DNA from: Pelagomonas calceolata
Lineage: Eukaryota
Assembly: GCA_918797485.1 (NCBI GenBank)
Contig: CAKKNE010000001.1
Location: 2,170,001 to 2,234,000 of the forward strand
Length of the DNA: 64,000 bases
Direction: 5' to 3'
The notes under the pieces are model-generated. The model ran no database searches. It was not told where the DNA came from and worked only from the letters and a program-made list of their open reading frames with translations. The number at the start of each line of letters is the position of its first letter. Position 1 is the first letter of the stretch. A program made the translations under genes and the position numbers. Below are positions 8,081 through 20,240 of the stretch, one piece after another.

Positions 8081-8719
8081 ATGAAGGCCTTCGCCGGCCT
8101 CTCTTCTGATGACGATGATTCGGATGAGGACATGGCGCCCGCGTTGCCGATCCCGGGCCGCGCCTCGCCTTTGGTGGATGAAGACGTAGACGACGACGAA
8201 GCGCGAGCCGAGTTGCGATTCCGGGCCGAGCTCGAGTTCCTGCAGTGCTTAGCAAGTCCGTTATACTGCCAATTCTTAGCCCAGCACGACTATCTTGAAG
8301 ACCCGAAATTCTTGAAATTCCTCGACTACCTCCAGTACTTCCGCAGACCGGAGTACGTCGGGTTTGTGGAGTACCCCCACTGCTTCGCGTTTCTGGATTT
8401 GTTACGGGAGTCGGAGAAGTTCCGGACCGACATAAGACGGGACGAGTGCCGCGACTGGTGCCACCAGCAGCAGTTCCAGTCCTGGCAGTTCCACCACCGG
8501 CAGGAGCACGTCACGCCGAACTTGGAGCCCCCAGTCTTGGGCGAGGGCGACTGGCGCGCGACGCCCCTCCAATTAACCGGAGACGACTTTGTGAAGTACG
8601 AGGCGTACCTCGAGAAGACGTTGGGGAAGCAGTCCGAGGCGTGGTTCTTCTCGGCCGAGACGCTCGGGGACGAGAAGGTGCGCGCGGCGCTGGAGGCGTC
8701 GCCCCTGGCGGGGTCTTAA
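8081..8719 (+). CDS. MED31: Mediator subunit 31 (SOH1)
   Basis: RFRAELEFLQCLASPLYCQFLAQ...FLKFLDYLQY...YPHC. Confidence 0.92.
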   Translation: MKAFAGLSSDDDDSDEDMAPALPIPGRASPLVDEDVDDDEARAELRFRAELEFLQCLASPLYCQFLAQHDYLEDPKFLKFLDYLQYFRRPEYVGFVEYPHCFAFLDLLRESEKFRTDIRRDECRDWCHQQQFQSWQFHHRQEHVTPNLEPPVLGEGDWRATPLQLTGDDFVKYEAYLEKTLGKQSEAWFFSAETLGDEKVRAALEASPLAGS

Positions 8720-8745: not shown

Positions 8746-9741
8746 TCATTCCCTCGTGGCGACGCGACGCGCTGCCTCCGCGGCGGCCGCGCGCGCGACG
8801 GCTTCCTCCGCGTTCTCGGCACTGAGGTACCGCTGGTCGGCCTCCACGAGCGCGATTTTCTGCTTCACCACGACAATTTGATCTCGGATGCATACAAGAG
8901 ACCCCGCATAGGGCTCGCACATGATCGTATCTCCGTCTTCGAGACCAAGGTCGTCGCCCGTCTGCCAGCCCTCCTCGATCCGTTCCTCAGAGCCGGGCAG
9001 GTAAAACACCAATTGGGTGACATGGACTTCTTCCTCCAGATATCCTGAGGCCTTCGGCGCGTAGGCCCTAAACATCCTCATGAGTGGTGTTGTGGACCTA
9101 ATAAGCTTGAAGAAGGTTTCTTCACCATTTTCCTTCCACATCACGCGAAGATTGAGATATGTTGTGGGCTGCGGCGGCGGCGGCGGCGATAGGTACGACA
9201 GCACCCGTCGGAACAGGCCCCGTTCGCCCGTGCGGGCGAGGAATTTTAAGGCGCCGTCGTGCGTCGTCGCACGATCACGCAGCGCGAGGTGGCGGACCAA
9301 CGCGCACGTTCGTCGTTGTTCGATCACAAAGCTACGATGACCGCCCGCCGTGCGCACGGAAAGCAGAAACGCCTTGAACGCGAGGTAGTGCGCGTTGTTT
9401 ACCAGCGAAGGATCCCGTCGTTCTTTCTCGCCCAGGACCCATTCGATCGACTCAGATCGGCTCGCGCCTTGGTTCCATTGCGCGTCATAGACCGAAATTG
9501 TGGCCACAGCGTCCAGACTCGCCCCAGCGCGCAACAGCGCGATGGCGACCGCCCGATGTTGTCGTCTTCTGAACCTGGTCGCGTAGAGAATAGCATAAGC
9601 TAGAGGAGAGTACCGGTAAACTTCCTTCCCGCCGTCCTCTAGCATTTTGGTTATTTTAGATGCTCTGTGGTCGATCCCGGCGCCCCATCTTATCAGCAGG
9701 GCGATCAGGCGCGAGGAGGACCAGCCGGGTCCCTGATGTAA
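8746..9741 (-). pseudogene. 3' half of an insertion-disrupted ankyrin + SUMO/ubiquitin-like gene
   Basis: LIALLIRWGAGID, SPLAYA, LLRAGASLD ankyrin motifs; LNLRV..GEETFFKL..TTPLMRMFRAY..LGLEDGDTI SUMO-like domain; joins 14892-15176 in frame. Confidence 0.75.
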
Positions 9742-9908
9742 CATACTAGCCCTGGAGGGGGCATTCCGTTGGCCCCGAGACTGGTGCGTGAGGCGCACCA
9801 GGCTAAAAAGGGCCGCCAAAATCGGCCTTAACGCTGCCGTTGGCCGGTGCCGCTGCGCGTATTAACCGCCCGCACCGTCCCGCGGGGCTCCATAACGAAA
9901 TCCCGGCA

Positions 9909-10655
9909 ATGGATGAGGCTGCGCGCATCGCGGCAGCCCCTGCTGAGGAGGAGGCTGATGCGGCCTGCGACGCCGCCGTCGAGGCCGCTATCGACGAAGA
10001 GCAGGCCGCCGACGACGCCGCCGACGCGGGGCAGCCTCGGGAGGCCCGTGCCACTGTCCTCGATCGCGAAGAAGCCATCCCGCTGTCGCGCGTCCAGTGC
10101 AACAACCTGGGTATACGCTTCCAGCAGCACCACGACGCCACCAAAGCGCTTCGCGACGGCGGCATTCGCGAGTCGTCCGGAGTCAGGTTGCAAGATGGGC
10201 AGTACGGCACCGTCCTTGAAATTGACGGTGCTGCTGCCGTCGTCGAGATACGGAAGCAAGGGAATAAGAGGCGTCGCTTCACGCTGCCCGTGGCCGAACT
10301 TACCCTTCGCGTCCCGAGACTGTCGCAAGCGATGGCTAAGCAGTGGAGTATCGACGAATACGTTATGGAGGGCCCCAAACGTGTCCGACGCGAGTACGAC
10401 GACTGGCGCCGGCGGCACAAATACGCCGGCTTCGTCTCGCACTACAGACGACGGGTTCTGGGTGCGTTGCCGCGGCACCCGACGACGTTCTCTGAGGCGG
10501 ACTTCATCGAAGCTGCTGCGCGCGTGGGCCTCCAACATAGGACCGGGGCGCGGTGGCTTCTCCGCGACTTTGTCAAGGTCACGAAGACGGTCGCACGCCT
10601 CCCGAAGAATAGGGGTCCGCCCGACGCGCCGCGAAAGTACCGCCTTCGCGAGTAG
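9909..10655 (+). CDS. Element accessory protein: acidic N-terminus, KOW/SH3-like middle, basic (wHTH-like?) C-terminus
   Basis: GVRLQDGQYGTVLEIDGAAAVVEI..FTLPVAELTL resembles KOW/SH3; lies inside the insertion, convergent with the transposase. Confidence 0.6.
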   Translation: MDEAARIAAAPAEEEADAACDAAVEAAIDEEQAADDAADAGQPREARATVLDREEAIPLSRVQCNNLGIRFQQHHDATKALRDGGIRESSGVRLQDGQYGTVLEIDGAAAVVEIRKQGNKRRRFTLPVAELTLRVPRLSQAMAKQWSIDEYVMEGPKRVRREYDDWRRRHKYAGFVSHYRRRVLGALPRHPTTFSEADFIEAAARVGLQHRTGARWLLRDFVKVTKTVARLPKNRGPPDAPRKYRLRE

Positions 10656-10744
10656 TAAGAAATTGTAGGAGTGCTCCCCTAGTTATGTGGTACAAACTTT
10701 ACTCAAAAACAACAACGAAAGTCTAGGACCCTCGAGCAGCGAGC

Positions 10745-13700
10745 TCATCCCGCAACAGCTGCTTCCGCCTCGCCAGGCTTCGGTCGGATGCAGGTTTCGT
10801 GGACTTCGCCACTCCAGAGAGTGTATCGATCGGACGTGGACAGGTAGACGTATCTCTTGCAGCAGTCGCAGACGCGCTTGAGCGGTCGGCCCTCCGTGCC
10901 GGACGAATAAACGAAGTCGCGGTGGTCGCGATACGTCGCGACGAGCGCATCGACTTCGCCGCGGAGCCTATCCCACTGCGCAGAATCTGCGAGCGGGATG
11001 TCCTTGGCGAGCTCGGACATCAACTCGGCGCGATGCGACGCGTCCCAGCCCTCTGCATCCGAAGGAATCGACTTGTCGCGGCGCCCTTGCAGGAACGTGG
11101 AGCAGAGCACTATCCCTTCCTCGAAGGCCTTGCGGAGCTTGTCGGGCGGGCCGCGAGACGCCTGCAGGACAAGGAACGGCGAGACAAAGTTCGCGAGAGG
11201 CCCCTGGTCCTGCTCGCCTGCGTCGGTGTGCGCGAGTCGAACGCCGCCAGCGCCGCCGCGGCCACAACCAGCGTAGAAGGCGCCGAACCGCGGCTTCTCG
11301 ACGAGGTAAAGCGTGAGCTCGGTCGTGCGCGCGCCCGACTTCCAGGACCACGCGTAGATGGAGCCTGGTCTCACGTCGATGAAGGTCCGCGCGCCCGGCT
11401 CCGTCTTCTCCGTGTCCTCTTTATCAAAAAAGACGCGGATCCTGTCCTTCTGGACCTCGAGGCGCGCCGCGTAGCCCGCATCTTCAAGCAAAAACGGCCT
11501 CGCGCGCACCCTTCTGTCGCCGCGGCGATAGTCCGCGGCCAAGAGCGCGACCTCAACTTTCTTGAAAGTCCGGCGAAACTTCTCCGTCGCATCGTCCTCG
11601 GCGTCCTCCTCTGCGCCGACGTCGTCCTCACTGGCCGCCGCGTCCTCGTCCTGCTCCGCTGGCGCGTCGTCGTCCGCGTCGTCCTGCGCAGGCGCCGGCG
11701 CTGGCGCTGGCGCTGGGACGGGGCGCGCCCGCGACGTCCTCGCCCAGTGGTTCCCGAGCTGTGGACAAGTGATGAAGGGCCCCTCGCGTCGGGCGCGCAG
11801 CCGCGCGAGGTCCGCGTCCTCGCGGTCGCGTCTCTTCTTCTCGTGGGCCAGGAGCGCAAGCGGCGCGGTCCGGCGCGACTCGTCGGTATATAAGTGCCAG
11901 GACGCGTCGATCTCTCGGAGCAGGTACTCTATTTTGGCGACTTCGCGGTCCAGGAAGTGCTTGTCGACGCTCCCGCCGCGGCATCCATGGTTATAGAATT
12001 TCGTCACGTGCCGGTGGAAATCTTCGACCGGCAGGTCCGACAGGTCGCACGGCGTGATCTCGACGCGCAGGAGCTGCGACAGTCTCTGGCAAGTGCCATG
12101 CAGCGCGCCCGCGTTGTTGGCCGCGACGCGCGCCGTGACGCGGCACTCCTTTTTACCGAAGCAGACCGCAAGCAACGACGCAGCGAACCAGTAGTTGAGC
12201 TGCATCTCGCGCTTGAACGCCCGGTAGCCCTCCCTCGTCGTGCGCGCCATCGTCGCGCGCTGCCACGACAAGACCAGCAGGTCGATGACCCTCGTCACAA
12301 AACCACCAGACTGGACGCCCGGCGGCTTGAAGCCGATTAACGCGTGCGCCTCGAGCGACCCGAGCCGCGCGAAGTCGCCCGTCTTCGTGACGGGGTGCGT
12401 GGTCTTGGTCTCGTGCACGTTCTGCTCGAAGCGCCGGCCGAGGCGCGACGCGACGTGATTTACGAAGGCCGCGTGGACTGGCGCGCCGAGCTTGATGCAG
12501 AGGTGGCCGATGGCCTTCACAACGCCCGCCGTGCCCGTGCCGCCCACGTGGAGAGGTCCGTGCGTGACGCGCGTCGGGTCCGAGCGAACCAGAGGTAGAC
12601 CTCGCTTTTGAAAACGCAGCAAGACCGCCGCGGCGCCGCCCTCCTCGTGTTCCTTCTTGATCTCCTCGTACGAAAAGTCGACGGGCGTGTAGCGGACGAG
12701 CCCGCGCCCGCGATCGAGCCGCAGAGCGACGTCGCGCTTCGTCGCCGTATACGGGTTATCGGCGGGGCTCGCGAAGCCCATCCCGTTAAAACCCTCGCAC
12801 ACGGCCCGCAAATCGAGGGCCAAGGCGTAGATCGCCGCGCGGGCCTCAGGCGCGTAGACGCCGTCGGCGCGCTTGAGCTTGACGGAGATGCCGCCGCCGC
12901 CGCCGTGCTCCCTCGCAGTCAAGTCGTGCACCGTGTCCCAGATCGACGCGAGCGCCCGGCTCGACGCCTCGCCGTGCGCTTTCAGAGCGTCGCGCCCGTC
13001 GTCGTCGAGCGCTAAACCCAGCAGAAGGCAGTGACGCGTGCGGTCCTACGTGAATGAAACGTCATCGAAAACTGCGGTGGTCGACACTGGATGCGACAGC
13101 GAGTGCACCCTTGAGCAAGCACTGCAGGAGCCAGGCCGTGGACTTGTGTTCGCGCGCCCGCCGCCAGTCGCGAAGTAGCTGCGCTGCATCCCACGACAAG
13201 CACAGCGGAAGAACCACCTCGTCGGGACCGCGACCCGCCGGGTACATACCACGCAAAAGCTGATCGTACAACGGCGCCCGCGCTGCACCATTCACCTCTT
13301 TTTCGAGCAGCACGCGCACGTCGCGGCGCGCCGAGCACGCGTGGCGCCGCGCATCAACAAAAACCTCGTAGGCGCCCTCCGTCTGCATCTCAGTCGCAAA
13401 GCGCAGAGGTTCGACGGTCGCCGCAGCACGAGTCTCGGCGCGCCGCGGGACGACGCGCGTGTCCTCGGACGCCCCGGCAATATCAGCCAGCGCGCGGTCG
13501 GTGCGCGCGGCCAGATCGTCGTAGGCCCTTTGGCTAAGGCCTCCGACGCGCCGCCACAGGTCAAAGGCCTCGCACAGACCTTGTTTCCTCGTAGAGAGCC
13601 GCCGCAGAGCGAGGTGGGCCACGAATTGTCGCCCAGCATGCGTCTGCTCGCAGATGACGGCCAGCGTCGGCCACAAACAGTTCTCCGTGAGGAAGTCCTT

Positions 13701-14798
13701 GAGGGCGTCGACCGCTCGCTCCTCGTCGTGGCGGCGAAAGGCGGGCTGCGCGTCGCCGCGAAGGTCGGGAAGCTCGCCGCGCTCTCCAATCGGTTTCAAA
13801 CCCTGAAGCGCCAACCACACAGCGCCCGCATCAAGCGCAGTCTCGCGTCTGGCACACACATGTCGCCGACGAGTCCACCGAGAGAGATCCGCCGTCGGTC
13901 GCGCGAGCTTTTGGGGCGGCTCAAAGCGTCCGAAGGGCTTCACGACCCGCCGAAGCAGCACCGGCAGCTCAGGGCGTCGTGCAGCTTGTGCGACCATTGA
14001 GACAAGCCCTCGACCCAATTCTGGCTCATCTACAAGTGCACGAGACGCCGCATGGCGAGCAACTTTGGTCGACGACGCGACCCGCTTCGCGACGTCGACG
14101 ACGTCGTCGTCCAGATAGACAGGCCTCCGTGCAGCACTTGAGGACTCTTCCAAAGTCTTGCCGGCATCCGTCAGCAGCCGTAGACCCGCGTCCTTCGCCA
14201 CCGTCACGACTGGAGCGGCGGTCACGTTCCTACCTTTAATAGGTGAGCGTCGATGCAGCCGTTTAGCATCGGGAGACTTCAGCATCAACGGCGAAGAGAT
14301 GGGCGTGGCCGGCTTCGGCCTTTTTTGCCGGCGAGTTATTGTTTTAATATGATAAAGCGGCTTGCCCATAACCTCGTCCGCGGCAGGCCCATCATCAACG
14401 TCCATGGCGTGATCCGTCGCGCAGTGTGAGATGAAGGGCTGCCACACAGCATCAGGGACGCCCCACCCTCGAAATAGCTTGATCGCTAAGGCACGAGAAA
14501 CTAGCTGTAGTCCGCCCTTGCCGGTCGACGACGTCTGGTGCGACGCCACGTCCGGCATGCGCACAACAGCCTCAATCGCGTTGCGAAGCCGATCCTTATG
14601 CTGCTTCGCCGTCACTGACAGCTCGCCGTCGCCAAAGAACTTGATGAAGTCACCGACAGAGGGCCAATCAAGCCAGTAGTCATTATCGCCTCGTGCGGCG
14701 CCGCGCGCACATATCTTGACCTCGTCTTCGCCGCCGAGTGGGGCCACGTATGGAGGAAGTCGGTACACGTGAATACGCGCAGCGATAACCGCTGGCAT
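10745..14798 (-). CDS. RAG1/Transib/Chapaev-like DDE transposase (two ORFs probably joined by a short intron ending at AG 13046-13047)
   Basis: Ordered motifs DLSRWTRRRH, LSQRAY, LSWDAA (D), CLLLGLALDDD, ALDLRAV (D), GPLH, LSDLPVEDFH (E), HGCRGG. Confidence 0.6.
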
Positions 14799-14891
14799 TT
14801 TGATTTAGAGGCTGCCGACTGCAGTCGCTCCGCTCGGGTGCACCTAGTATGTTTAATGAGCGTTAGCAGGGAGTTCTGAGATCGTGCATAC

Positions 14892-15176
14892 CATATTGAT
14901 TTCATGAGTTTGACCCGCAGTTTGTAGATTACTGATTGTGAACATACGATTCGGGTCCGCGCCGCGAGTGAGCGCCAGCTCGACGAAGCGGAGTTTTGCC
15001 TCGGCGACGCGTCGGTCACAATGGACCGTGTGGACCGCCGCATCCCACAACACAGATGACAAGTCGTTCGTCCCACGATCCTTTGACACGAGCCACTGGC
15101 GGGCGGCATCGATGTCCTCGACCTTCCCTGATTCTAAGGCCTTGACTATAGACGTAGGGATAGCTGGCCCGGCCAT
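14892..15176 (-). pseudogene. 5' half of the insertion-disrupted ankyrin gene
   Basis: MAGPAIP...VLWDAA...VELALTRGADPN; exactly 95 codons up to the junction. Confidence 0.75.
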
Positions 15177-15480: not shown

Positions 15481-18400
15481 CTAGCCCGGAGCCGGCGCCT
15501 CTTGTTGGCCCGTCAGCAGAGGAGCGAACCGCCTAACATGATCGGTCTTCATGAGCTCCTTGATCTTGCGCAGGCGCTGCTCGGCCTTGGCGTCGTCGCG
15601 GCGCCACTCCTGGGACTGCCACTTTTCCCTCATTTGTAGGGCGTCGGGGTCCGGTTCTGCATCGGCCAGCGCGACTTCCCTCCTCGTCGCGTCCAAGGCA
15701 GCCTCAGCCGCGAGCACCGCGTCCAGCCGATCGTCAGCTCGCTCCAGACACCGTCGAGCCGCGGCGTGGTTCGCCCGGAAACTTTGTAGATCATCAGCAG
15801 AGGTAGGTGCCGCTTCCTTAACTTTCCCGGCATAAGCAGAACCGAAATGCTGCGTCGCGGACTGCATGTTCTCGTCGTAGGCCTTCCTAGCTTTCAACGT
15901 ACACGCTACCACATTCCTGATCGTCTCCCAGCGCTTCCTGACCGATTCGTCGACGGCGCTGTCTTCCTCGACATGTGTAGGTTCAGATAAAGAGGGACAC
16001 GGCACCGAAGTTAACGATTCAATAAATTTGCCCACAACCGGCGTCGCCTTCGTCGGCGTCATCTGCGATGCGGAAGGCTTCTCGCCGGAAGCTTCTGCCG
16101 CTAGAGCGCGTTCCAAGCGATCCACCCTTGATCTATAAAAGACCGAGGCATCTTTCACCGTATACTCCTCCCGCAGATCCTCCTCGGAGTCCGAACCGTA
16201 TGCCCTGTTCTGTAGGGTCGGCGGCGGCACGAGATCGAAAGCTTCGTCGAGGGCGACGTCCGCGAAGTGCCCGTACCCGTGGCAACACACCGCCGCCAAC
16301 AATCTAGCATCATGTGCGGGAGTCCAGGCGACGTGCGTATCGTTTAAATATCGTTCCGTGATGTCCCTGCTGAACTCGACACCGCTGTGCGGGATCTCCG
16401 AGGCTCTTCGTCTCAACTTCCGTTCCACAAGTGCGAAGAACCCGACGCGTCGCAGTACTCTATCGCCGTCGAAGGGATCTCGGGACGCATCATACCCTTC
16501 GGCCTTCTGTCGTAGACACTCATCTAAGGCCTCCCTACATAGTTTCATTGTAGCCGCAGGAGAATCAGCAAGCGAGCCCATCTCGAGCCGCTCGTGCGCC
16601 AACACACCGCCATCGGACAACCCACCGGGCAGGCCAAACCGCTCCAGCTTCGCGGCGACCTTGGCGATCGACGACGCCACGGGTCTAGTTACATCTATCT
16701 CGACCGAATCATCTGAATCCGACTCGACCTGTGTGGAAATCAAATTTACGGCGCGTTCGTCCTGAATCGTCGCGTCGACCTCCACGCCATCGACGCGACG
16801 CCTGCTCGATGGCGTGGCGATGCCGGTTCCTCACCGCTCGACCGAGCCAGCACGGCATCGCCGCGAAGTGCACCCGACACACTGGTTGATTTCCACACAG
16901 GACTCTACGTGATGAAAATCGCCATCGTCCAGATCATCATCTTCCTCATCTAACACCAGCACGGGACCCTGCTTGATCTGCTTCCGTTCTCGTTTGCCCT
17001 TCCCCAAACTTTCCTGCGTTTTTTGTTGCGTCGCGTCGTAACCAGTTTTTAACAGCTTATCCCATCCTTCAAACTCAGGTGAAGGCTCTTCTTCCTCTTC
17101 CGGTACTTCGTCGGTCTCCTCGAAGCTTATTTCGGCGACTTTGAAGGAGTCCATCAGTTTTGATAGGTTGTTTTTCTCGGCGACCGGTGTCTCCTCGTTC
17201 TCTACTTCTGGCTCCCTATGTAATAAAGCAGAGATGGCGTCGTCGTCCCACTTGATCTCCGGTTTGTTCGTATTCCCATCACCGTATCTCTCGGCTCGCG
17301 ACGCGTCGACGTCGGCCGCGGCGCCACCGGAGAACAACTCAGACGCGCCGTACTTGAGCACGTCATCCAACTCGGCCCTCGACAGGTTTTTGGAACCGGC
17401 ACCCGACACGACGACGTGCTCCAGGCACAGCTTTCGTTTCGCGACCGCCACAATGCGCTCCTCGACTGTTGCCCTCGATACGAATCTGTAGACCCGAACC
17501 GCGTCCCGTTGGCCGAGTCGATGCGCCCTCGCTAAAGCTTGTAGATCATTATGAGGGTTCCAGTCCGCGTCATAAATAACGACAGTGTTCGCTGTTGCTA
17601 GGTTGACCCCGAGCCCGCCCGCCCTCGTACTAAGTAAGAACAGAAATAGCTTGGAGTCCGGAGCGTTGAAGGCGTCGATGCGTTTTTGCCTTATATCTGA
17701 AGCGGTCGACCCGTCTAAGCGCGTCGTGCCGTACCGTTTTAGCGCTGCAAATTCCTCCAGCACATCTAACGTTCTTGTCATCTGCGAAAATAACAGAACT
17801 CGAGCCTTGGCCTCTTTTAGTTTGAGGAGCATCCTATCTAGTAAAGCGAGCTTGCCCGAGCCCTGCAATAACGCTTCGACGCGGTCGCCTTGGATCATAT
17901 CTTCCGGGAACTTGTCCCGCATGAGCTCGACGTGGTTGCACACTTTTCGTAATTGCATCACTATATTTTGTAAAGCAGGAGCTCGAGCCTTCGACTTGGA
18001 CCCTTCGGCGCCACTCAAGGCCGGGAAGTTCGCCGTCAAAACCGCCCTATATAACTTCTTCTGCGTCGGCGTGAGCTCGACGCGCACCACGAGCTCCTTC
18101 TTCGCCTTGATCACTCCCTTGAGGACGTCGTCCTTGAGGCGCCGCAGCATGCGACCCTGCAACAACTCCCGCAAATTCGCGAGGCGCTTCTGGGTCGCCT
18201 CGTCCTCTTCGTTGGAGGAAAACACCTGATCTAGCGCCGCGATGGCTGTTGTACCTTCGACAGAGCATTCTTTTTTCACGCGCTCCGGGTCTAGGAAGAG
18301 TAGTAGGTGGTAGAGCTCATCTAATGAATTCTGCAAGGGAGTACCAGTAAGTAACACGCGAAAGGCGCTATCTAAGTCATGTAGCTCCCGAAATAATCGG

Positions 18401-20240
18401 CCGGCACTGCCCGACTTGAGGCGATGGCCCTCATCAACAATCAGGCAGGACCACGCCCCTATACTTTTTAAGGCTGATTTCTCAGAAGAAGCCGTCTCGT
18501 ACGACGTGATGCACACGTGGAAGCGTCGCGTCTTGTCGAATTCCGCATCTTTACAGACGTCTCGCGCCGACGCGGATCCTGTTAAAACGACGCAGTGCAA
18601 ATCGGAACACCACTTCTCGAGCTCGCGCTCCCAGTTCTGTAACGTCGACAGAGGCGCTACTACGAGTGCCGGGCGCCAGTCCTTCTCCGAACGCTCGTAA
18701 ATTAACGACGCTAGCAATCCGGCGGACTGGATCGTCTTGCCGAGGCCCATCTCGTCGGCCAAGATACAACTGGTCTTGGATTGCGCTTTCGCGCGGAGCC
18801 AGTCGAGGCCCTGCAATTGATAATCTCTTAGTGTTCCACCGTCGAACCACGCCGGTTGTGTACTTTTGAGGGCCTTATTGCGAGTAGTAGTGCCGAGTTG
18901 TCTCTTAGCCTTAATAGCAGGCGTATCTACACTTCTTTCTCTCTCATCAAAAGCTTCCCGGAACGACGTGCCGCACCGATCCAGATCGCACTCGCGCTCC
19001 CAGGACGACTCGTCGTAGGGCCTACCTCTCCACTTCACGAGTAAATCTCGGGTCTTCGTCGCTCGTCCGTCAATGCTAAAAGGCCGCTCGGCTAGAACGC
19101 GCTGCGGCACGACGCTAAACCCGCTGCCCGAGTTCCTAGTAGCCGCCGCGAGCCTTCTTAGTTTGATGGCGTCGCCGCGCTTCCAACTAGGGTCCTCGTC
19201 CTCGTCGTTGTCCGAGTCGCCGTCGGCTAATTCCAGACCGACGCCGTAGTCGCGGACGCGCTTCTCGTAGTTGCGCAGTTTGCCCTTCGATAGACCTTCT
19301 ACTCTTTTCCGCTGGACCCATGACCTGTGTGATAGTCAACCAGTGAGTCGCGTGCACGCGGCCGTGCTGGCTCCATCGAGCGGTGAGGAATCGACACACC
19401 GTCACGCCGTCGAGCAGGCGTCGCGTCGATGGCGTGGAGGTCAGAATTGGGCCGTGGGAGATGCGCCGCGACATTTGATTTCCACACGGGTCGGGACGCG
19501 TGCCAATCGGCAGAAGCCTTCCACGTGCATAGGTACCAGTCCCCGTCGTGGCACTCGATGGCCTCCAAACCGTACGACGCTTCGCACCGGAAGCACCGCC
19601 ACAGATCGCCCTGCGGGGCCCGTTGGCCGTTCTCCCGTAAGGCTTGTTCACAATATCTCCGACCGCAATGCCCACATCTATAGTCGGCTTGCTTGTTCCC
19701 ACTCTTCCCACCACCGCACGTCTCGTGGCACAAATTCTTCGCTTCACAACTATCGCACTCGAACACGCCTGCATCCGGCACCCGCTCCCGACCGGCGCAC
19801 TTCATGCTAAAACGTTTGCTACAAATAGCACATTTTTCGGTAGGCACCTGCTTCTTGCACACACTACAGACCGGTGTGCTTTTCGGTTTCTTCGCTACAG
19901 GCTCTTCCTCTTCACTACTATCTTCGAGCGCGACAAAATTGTCGTCTTTTTTTGCGGTTCTAGCTCTAGGTGAACCCTTCCGCGGCGACGGTTTGCTCAT
20001 GGGCCTCGACATCCACTGGGTTAATGCTACTTCTAGCTCTCCCGCCGTCCGGCCCCGGCGCGGCCCGTCGAAGGCTGGATCGTTCGCCACAGCTTCGAAG
20101 TCCTCGCCGCCGTGCTTATGCAAGGCGGGCAAGAGCCAGGCGTCGCCCTCGACGTAGGCCTCTTCTGTGTCTTGAGCTTTCGCGCGCGGCTTCTTGGCGC
20201 TCGGCGCGGTCGTGGGGGAGCTGCGCCGCTTCGGCGGCAT
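15481..20240 (-). CDS. CHD-family (CHD3/4/Mi-2-like) chromatin remodeler; exons 20240-19498, 19324-16909, 16728-15481
   Basis: PHD-like Cys fingers, two chromodomains (YLCTWK..WHASWV; LLVKWRGRPYDESSWE), LADEMGLGKT, DEGH, QLRKVCNH, STRAGGLG, ARAHRLGQ; removing two introner introns fuses three ORFs in frame. Confidence 0.9.
16729..16908 (-). mobile_element. Introner element intron (180 nt) in the CHD gene
   Basis: TIR CTGTGTGGAAATCA...TGATTTCCACACAG (16729-16900); 8-bp TSD GTAGAGTC/GTCGAGTC supplies GT; TIR supplies AG. Confidence 0.92.
19325..19497 (-). mobile_element. Older, inverted introner element intron (173 nt) in the CHD gene
   Basis: Degenerate TIRs, same internal sequence; splicing restores WHASWVQRKRV and the frame into the SNF2 ORF. 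Confidence 0.85.

Follow-up and report, generated by a model that had tools for sequence, protein, structure and literature searches.

A polymorphic two-gene transposon in Pelagomonas calceolata with short asymmetric inverted ends, no target-site duplication and a predicted distant RAG1/Transib-clan enzyme

Background

The cut-and-paste transposon superfamilies have as a hallmark the duplication of a short stretch of target DNA, which results from the offset between the two sites of strand transfer. A locus in the alga Pelagomonas calceolata raises the question of how a transposon might enter a gene without leaving such a duplication, and of which kind of enzyme could achieve this. The locus lies in a stretch of 64,000 nucleotides (contig CAKKNE010000001.1, positions 2,170,001 to 2,234,000 of the forward strand; hereafter the window), which is gene-dense, eukaryotic and has a GC content of about 62%. 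A first-pass annotation of the window had proposed a recent insert of about 5.1 kb, carrying two genes in convergent orientation, that splits an ankyrin-SUMO gene on the minus strand. Here we report that the insert is a recent, polymorphic, two-gene transposon of 5,141 bp, with short asymmetric inverted ends and no target-site duplication (TSD). We consider it probable that it moves by cut-and-paste through a predicted, distantly related DDE enzyme of the RAG1/Transib clan, which would join the element to its target with zero stagger.

Results and discussion

Boundaries of the insertion

Evidence from reads and contigs came from 4 of the 24 listed sequencing runs, namely a DNA run (X11), two seawater metagenomes (X13 and X14) and an RNA run (X21); the window stretch is present in both cultured-organism runs and seawater metagenomes. 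Contigs from the two metagenomes preserve the empty site, fusing position 9730 to 14872 and lacking the 5,141 bases in between. In both, zero bases at the joint can be assigned to both sides, and the skipped stretch reads CC...GG. The element accordingly lies between T9730 and A14872, with no host base duplicated or lost (Table 1). The filled site is no assembly artefact, because contigs of the DNA run covering 9420-9885 and 14424-14996 bridge both junctions with 0 mismatches. Filled and empty alleles are both seen, and the proposals of a split gene and of a recent insertion are borne out. The proposed ends at 9746 and 14891, drawn from a CATA direct repeat, miss the true limits by 15 and 20 bases, as the contigs join 9730 to 14872 rather than 9745 to 14892 or 14896. 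Although the CATA repeat is present and leaves the frame open, it is due to chance, since frame-compatible 4-bp direct repeats occur within 25 nt at 91% of 2,000 random junction pairs. The empty site also rules out two other readings of the ends, a 5-bp CATAC repeat and a Helitron-like CTAG terminus. The 64-kb window holds no further copy of the element.

Intact relatives of the host protein place the junction at the same point. The 5' half-protein belongs to a public cluster of 14 proteins, 11 of which extend across the junction, each with ...SEL|PGW at that point; of the remaining three, two are the halves from the window itself and one is a C-terminal fragment. Joining 9730 to 14872 yields a protein of 429 residues, which aligns without gaps to 6 of the 9 full-length members (428-436 residues), the other three differing only at their ends, so that the intact members are colinear across the corrected junction. 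The CATA join, which had led to a rebuilt junction reading HEINM, gives 426 residues and an additional 3-residue gap against all nine, and is discarded. The C-terminal domain is SUMO-like (phmmer E=1e-4 to yeast SMT3), whereas the ankyrin likeness was seen by eye; neither the host halves nor the intact 429-residue member has a Pfam match.

In the public annotation the two halves appear as separate genes of 332 and 107 residues (P0068 and P0064, at 8746-9741 and 14853-15176), and the insertion is missed. RNA reads over 9171-9463 are 90-95% identical to the window and have foreign loose ends, and represent paralogs of the host gene that are transcribed and may compensate for the disrupted copy. 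No X21 reads fall over 9508-9734. The neighbours of the element, encoding Med31 and a CHD-like remodeler, are ordinary nuclear genes.

Table 1. Features of the element, its host gene and its neighbours (positions in the window)
Feature	Position	Strand	Remarks
Whole element	9731..14871	.	X13/X14 joint, exact limits of second copy (L121), intact host proteins
Left end	9731..9749	+	CCCTG (9731-9735), 4-bp spacer, inner block AACATACTAG (9740-9749)
Right end	14844..14871	-	CCCTG (14871-14867), 13-bp spacer, inner block AACATACTAG (14853-14844)
Accessory gene	9909..10655	+	248 aa, convergent with transposase
Transposase exon 1	13098..14798	-	567 codons; conserved N-terminal segment, helical region, candidate catalytic D537 (13188-13190)
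Transposase intron	13046..13097	-	52-nt GT-AG
Transposase exon 2	10745..13045	-	766 codons + stop; D645 (12812-12814), H733 (12548-12550), E908 (12023-12025)
C-terminal features of exon 2			Acidic linker; PH-like domain (about 11060-11569); CxxC...HxxC motif (about 10787-10876)
Host gene, 5' part	14872..15176	-	Clusters with intact 428-436-aa proteins
Host gene, 3' part	8746..9730	-	SUMO-like domain at about 8920-9180
Med31 gene	8081-8719		Pfam E=8e-31
CHD-like remodeler gene	15481-19110		

Ends of the element and further copies

The corrected boundaries reveal terminal inverted repeats (TIRs), which had been reported as missing: 5 bp of CCCTG and a 10-bp inner inverted block, AACATACTAG, stand at both ends, with spacers of 4 bp on the left and 13 bp on the right. 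This bipartite pattern, picked after the ends were seen, gave two matches, and none in 100 shuffles. By sequence, the ends have the asymmetric bipartite TIRs that serve as a criterion for Transib and RAG-like (RAGL) elements. The earlier view that they break the Transib/RAG rules stands as far as the missing CAC start and 5-bp TSD are concerned, but short bipartite TIRs exist and the duplication is zero rather than the 4-bp CATA. A perfect 13-bp inverted repeat (9851-9863 and 14772-14784), whose arms lie upstream of the accessory gene and within the first transposase codons, possibly provides additional transposase sites.

When metagenome contigs were scanned for a degenerate version of the ends, one locus, L121, was found, which holds a second whole copy. 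It is 93-97% identical to the window element, and the alignment stops exactly at 14871 and 9731. In both copies CCCTG begins both ends and a CAC or RSS-like (recombination signal sequence) heptamer is absent; the first 35 bases of the right end are identical, and 2 of the 10 bases of the left inner block are changed in L121. The flanks of L121, GGCAA and GCAGA, are unlike the window site and hold no repeat, though the assembly is possibly chimeric; a TSD is absent at both sites, and the two targets (GAACT|ACCCG and GGCAA|GCAGA) have no common motif. An X14 contig (record 15), in which the match begins at 9731 after 138 foreign letters, is a probable third insertion site. L121 has an internal deletion of about 1.15 kb at its position 2096/2097 (window 12816 to 11667), and an X13 contig a different one of about 1.03 kb (window 11232 to 12265). 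As both remove E908, non-autonomous derivatives with intact ends circulate in the wild. A loose form of the end pattern found 120 loci in viral contigs, none of which matched the element; no relatives were found in viral contigs or prokaryote genomes, there was no Rfam match, and word-indexed homolog searches returned little.

The transposase

Both genes of the element are covered on the expected strands by RNA reads of X21 (308 reads placed, from about 6% of the run), and seven reads with four different starts skip the intron of the larger gene. The spliced product has 1,333 residues and is matched end to end by a public protein of 1,335 residues (P0027; 1,248 identities); the exon structure also agrees with the spliced public relatives P0004, P0023 and P0027. 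The sole named relative of this protein is from Pelagophyceae sp. CCMP2097. The intron is missing from L121, where it corresponds to a 52-base gap, and from the X13 and X14 copies, which are guessed to be DNA, with a few changed bases adjoining; this points to a recent gain or loss of the intron within the transposon. Against L121, the ratio of non-synonymous to synonymous substitution rates (dN/dS) is 0.52 in exon 1 and 0.20 in the C-terminal part.

The annotation had set the family apart from Transib/RAG, but the protein evidence points toward the RAG1/Transib clan. D537, D645, H733 and E908 are conserved; we infer that D537, D645 and E908 form the catalytic triad and that H733 is the counterpart of RAG1 H795. 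The order and spacing of these residues fit RAG1, and an HGxxH motif, found in 6 of 6 proteins, aligns with the position of H795 rather than immediately preceding the glutamate. In a low-confidence model lacking the RNase H half, RAG1 chains were the only matches to the core among the rows listed from the top 1,000 Foldseek matches, with weak scores; the absence of Transib, Hermes, the P-element and other transposase structures from these rows excludes nothing. A search of BFVD with the fold returned nothing at E<=0.001, the single-sequence fold of exon 2 was uninformative (predicted local distance difference test score 36), and Pfam gave no family match.

The zinc-binding signatures of the clan are missing: there is no C(2)C motif between the second aspartate and the last glutamate in any of the 6 proteins holding both motifs, and the CCGHC tail occurs in 0 of 7 family proteins, all of which have the CxxC...HxxC motif instead. 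A GRP[RK] motif is also absent. The first 130 residues (14409-14798) align with P0008, P0010 and P0017; a likeness of this region to BRO-N/KilA-type DNA-binding domains, noted by eye, has no Pfam or PHROG support. In P0005, a relative of 55% identity, the helical region is followed directly and in frame by the C-terminal Cys/His motif, and the E motif and the PH-like domain are lacking. P0006 and P0008, which cover the C-terminal and N-terminal parts of the family respectively, both list a longest contig of 7,805 bp and may derive from a single related element.

The accessory gene

The accessory gene has a stranded RNA depth of 10-33 in X21, and its product falls into a public cluster of 77 members. 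Its dN/dS of 0.11 against L121 (12 synonymous and 4 non-synonymous changes, p=5e-5) indicates purifying selection. The protein matched no known family; at the sequence level, Pfam, PDB and Atlas gave no sign of a RAG2-like kelch propeller, and a KOW/winged-helix likeness seen by eye has no Pfam or PHROG support.

Relationship to known systems

Of the known systems that come nearest, AanRAGL, from Aureococcus anophagefferens (PMC9435367; Tao et al. 2022), has a 13-bp CAC-starting block, a 10-bp block, spacers of 4 and 13 bp, 5-bp TSDs and a RAG2L gene. The two elements have in common a pelagophyte host, polymorphic insertions, bipartite asymmetric ends, two genes and a RAG1-like core, which is predicted in our case. 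A 10-bp inner block with 4/13 spacers is also common to both; the block sequences differ, and the spacer match may be a coincidence. They differ in that AanRAGL has a tandem RAG2L, a 13-bp CAC block and a 5-bp TSD, whereas our element has the 5-bp CCCTG, no TSD and a convergent partner without RAG2 likeness, together with a PH-like domain. With Transib, ProtoRAG and RAG1 it shares the D-D-H-E arrangement, a helical region between H and E and asymmetric ends, and with ProtoRAG the convergent layout of two genes (PMC10462144). It lacks their 5-bp TSD, RSS-like heptamer, CxxC between the second D and E, CCGHC tail and GRP[RK], and sequence similarity to these proteins was not detectable.

How the element may insert

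On the reading that we favour, two transposase subunits would bind the CCCTG blocks, and the inner blocks, 4 bases away at one end and 13 at the other, would mark the ends as different. The element would be excised with blunt ends, in RAG-like fashion, and both 3'-OH ends would attack directly opposite target bonds; with no stagger between the attacked bonds, there would be no gap to fill and hence no duplication. More speculatively, the acidic linker, the PH-like domain and the Cys/His motif might serve as contacts to chromatin or to the inner block, with the 248-residue protein acting as a cofactor in the place of RAG2. The weaker points of this picture are the structural support, a low-confidence fold with weak scores, and the number of sites, two whole insertions and one empty site.

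An unlikely alternative is that the transposase only excises, and that the blunt element then enters a double-strand break that happens to be present, through end-joining by the host, the missing duplication being a product of repair. RAG signal ends are indeed blunt, and the lack of a common target motif would suit this explanation. Reinsertion of broken RSS ends is also the subject of published work (PMC2118463). Against this alternative, the ends are exact in both copies and the window site neither gained nor lost a host base, whereas end-joining usually trims or adds bases; the copies are also numerous, to judge from the accessory cluster.

About equally improbable is that the element moves as described through an enzyme outside the RAG1/Transib clan, either of another DDE lineage, such as a Spy/PHIS-like one, or an unrecognised recombinase. 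The absence of a sequence-level family match, the CC..GG ends and the missing zinc cysteines would be consistent with this, but it accounts poorly for the alignment of RAG1 chains alone to the core and for the RAG1-like spacing. Spy is likewise a TIR-bounded DDE element without TSD (Han et al. 2014, PMC4122938); it inserts at AAA|TTT, and non-staggered joining was proposed. Neither of our sites shows AAA|TTT, and Spy is found in invertebrate hosts and is related to IS5/ISL2EU/PIF-Harbinger, whereas the enzyme of our element is predicted to resemble RAG1. A DDE domain of the IS5/ISL2EU/Harbinger type had no Pfam match and was absent among the structural matches listed; the target rules of PHIS elements are covered in PMC4482050 and PMC10045372.

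Slightly less probable still is that short duplications are the rule in this family and that the two insertions are atypical or misleading, L121 being chimeric and the window an exception. There are just two whole insertions, one of them from a metagenome assembly, and all CMCT lineages listed in PMC12730594 make TSDs of 2-5 bp. Nevertheless, any duplication would leave the empty-site joint ambiguous, and there are zero ambiguous bases in two runs, while L121 has its own deletion and 3-7% divergence and is assembled through both flanks.

Our element is likely to belong to the same structural clan as the CMCT clade, in which ESTA, too, was linked to RAG1 solely through remote profile comparison. 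Members of that clade have TSDs of 2-5 bp, ends that are mostly CA..TG, and both a C(2)C and an H(3-4)H motif. Our element has CC..GG ends, no TSD and no C(2)C; its HGxxH has the H(3-4)H form but falls at the H795 position.

Cryptons have no TIRs, a short terminal direct repeat and a tyrosine recombinase. A Crypton-like, TIR-less element bounded by CATA, for which the repeat and its open frame would speak, is refuted by the empty site and the intact host proteins and by the ends of the second copy, and our element has TIRs, no direct repeat at its true ends and no Pfam recombinase match.

The element departs from the definitions of Transib, RAGL, CMCT, Spy and Crypton, and we file it in none of these groups. 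Neither this family nor any TSD-free element of the RAG1 clan was described in the literature covered, which did not extend to Repbase, subscription journals and bioRxiv supplements, so that a prior Repbase entry is possible.

Conclusions

Taken together, the element most likely works as a RAG1-clan transposon with Spy-like insertion. More tentatively, and at somewhat less than even chances, it may represent, in marine algae, a new and still active branch of the RAG1/Transib clan at the level of a superfamily, with: 1) independent TSD-free insertion; 2) a 4/13 spacer pairing akin to 12/23; 3) loss of the clan's zinc cysteines; and 4) replacement of RAG2 by a fused acidic-linker/PH/zinc-finger module and an unrelated partner protein. 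Finders of transposable elements that demand a TSD or long TIRs would miss this family. Its open frames, transcription and recent insertion mean that the element can be assayed, and a transposase that inserts exactly is a potentially useful tool. A second TSD-free case, in a clan whose 5-bp stagger has been studied closely by structural work, would make it possible to test directly how stagger length is controlled, and the 4/13 end asymmetry, held in common with a pelagophyte RAG-like transposon, bears on the age of 12/23-type end pairing.
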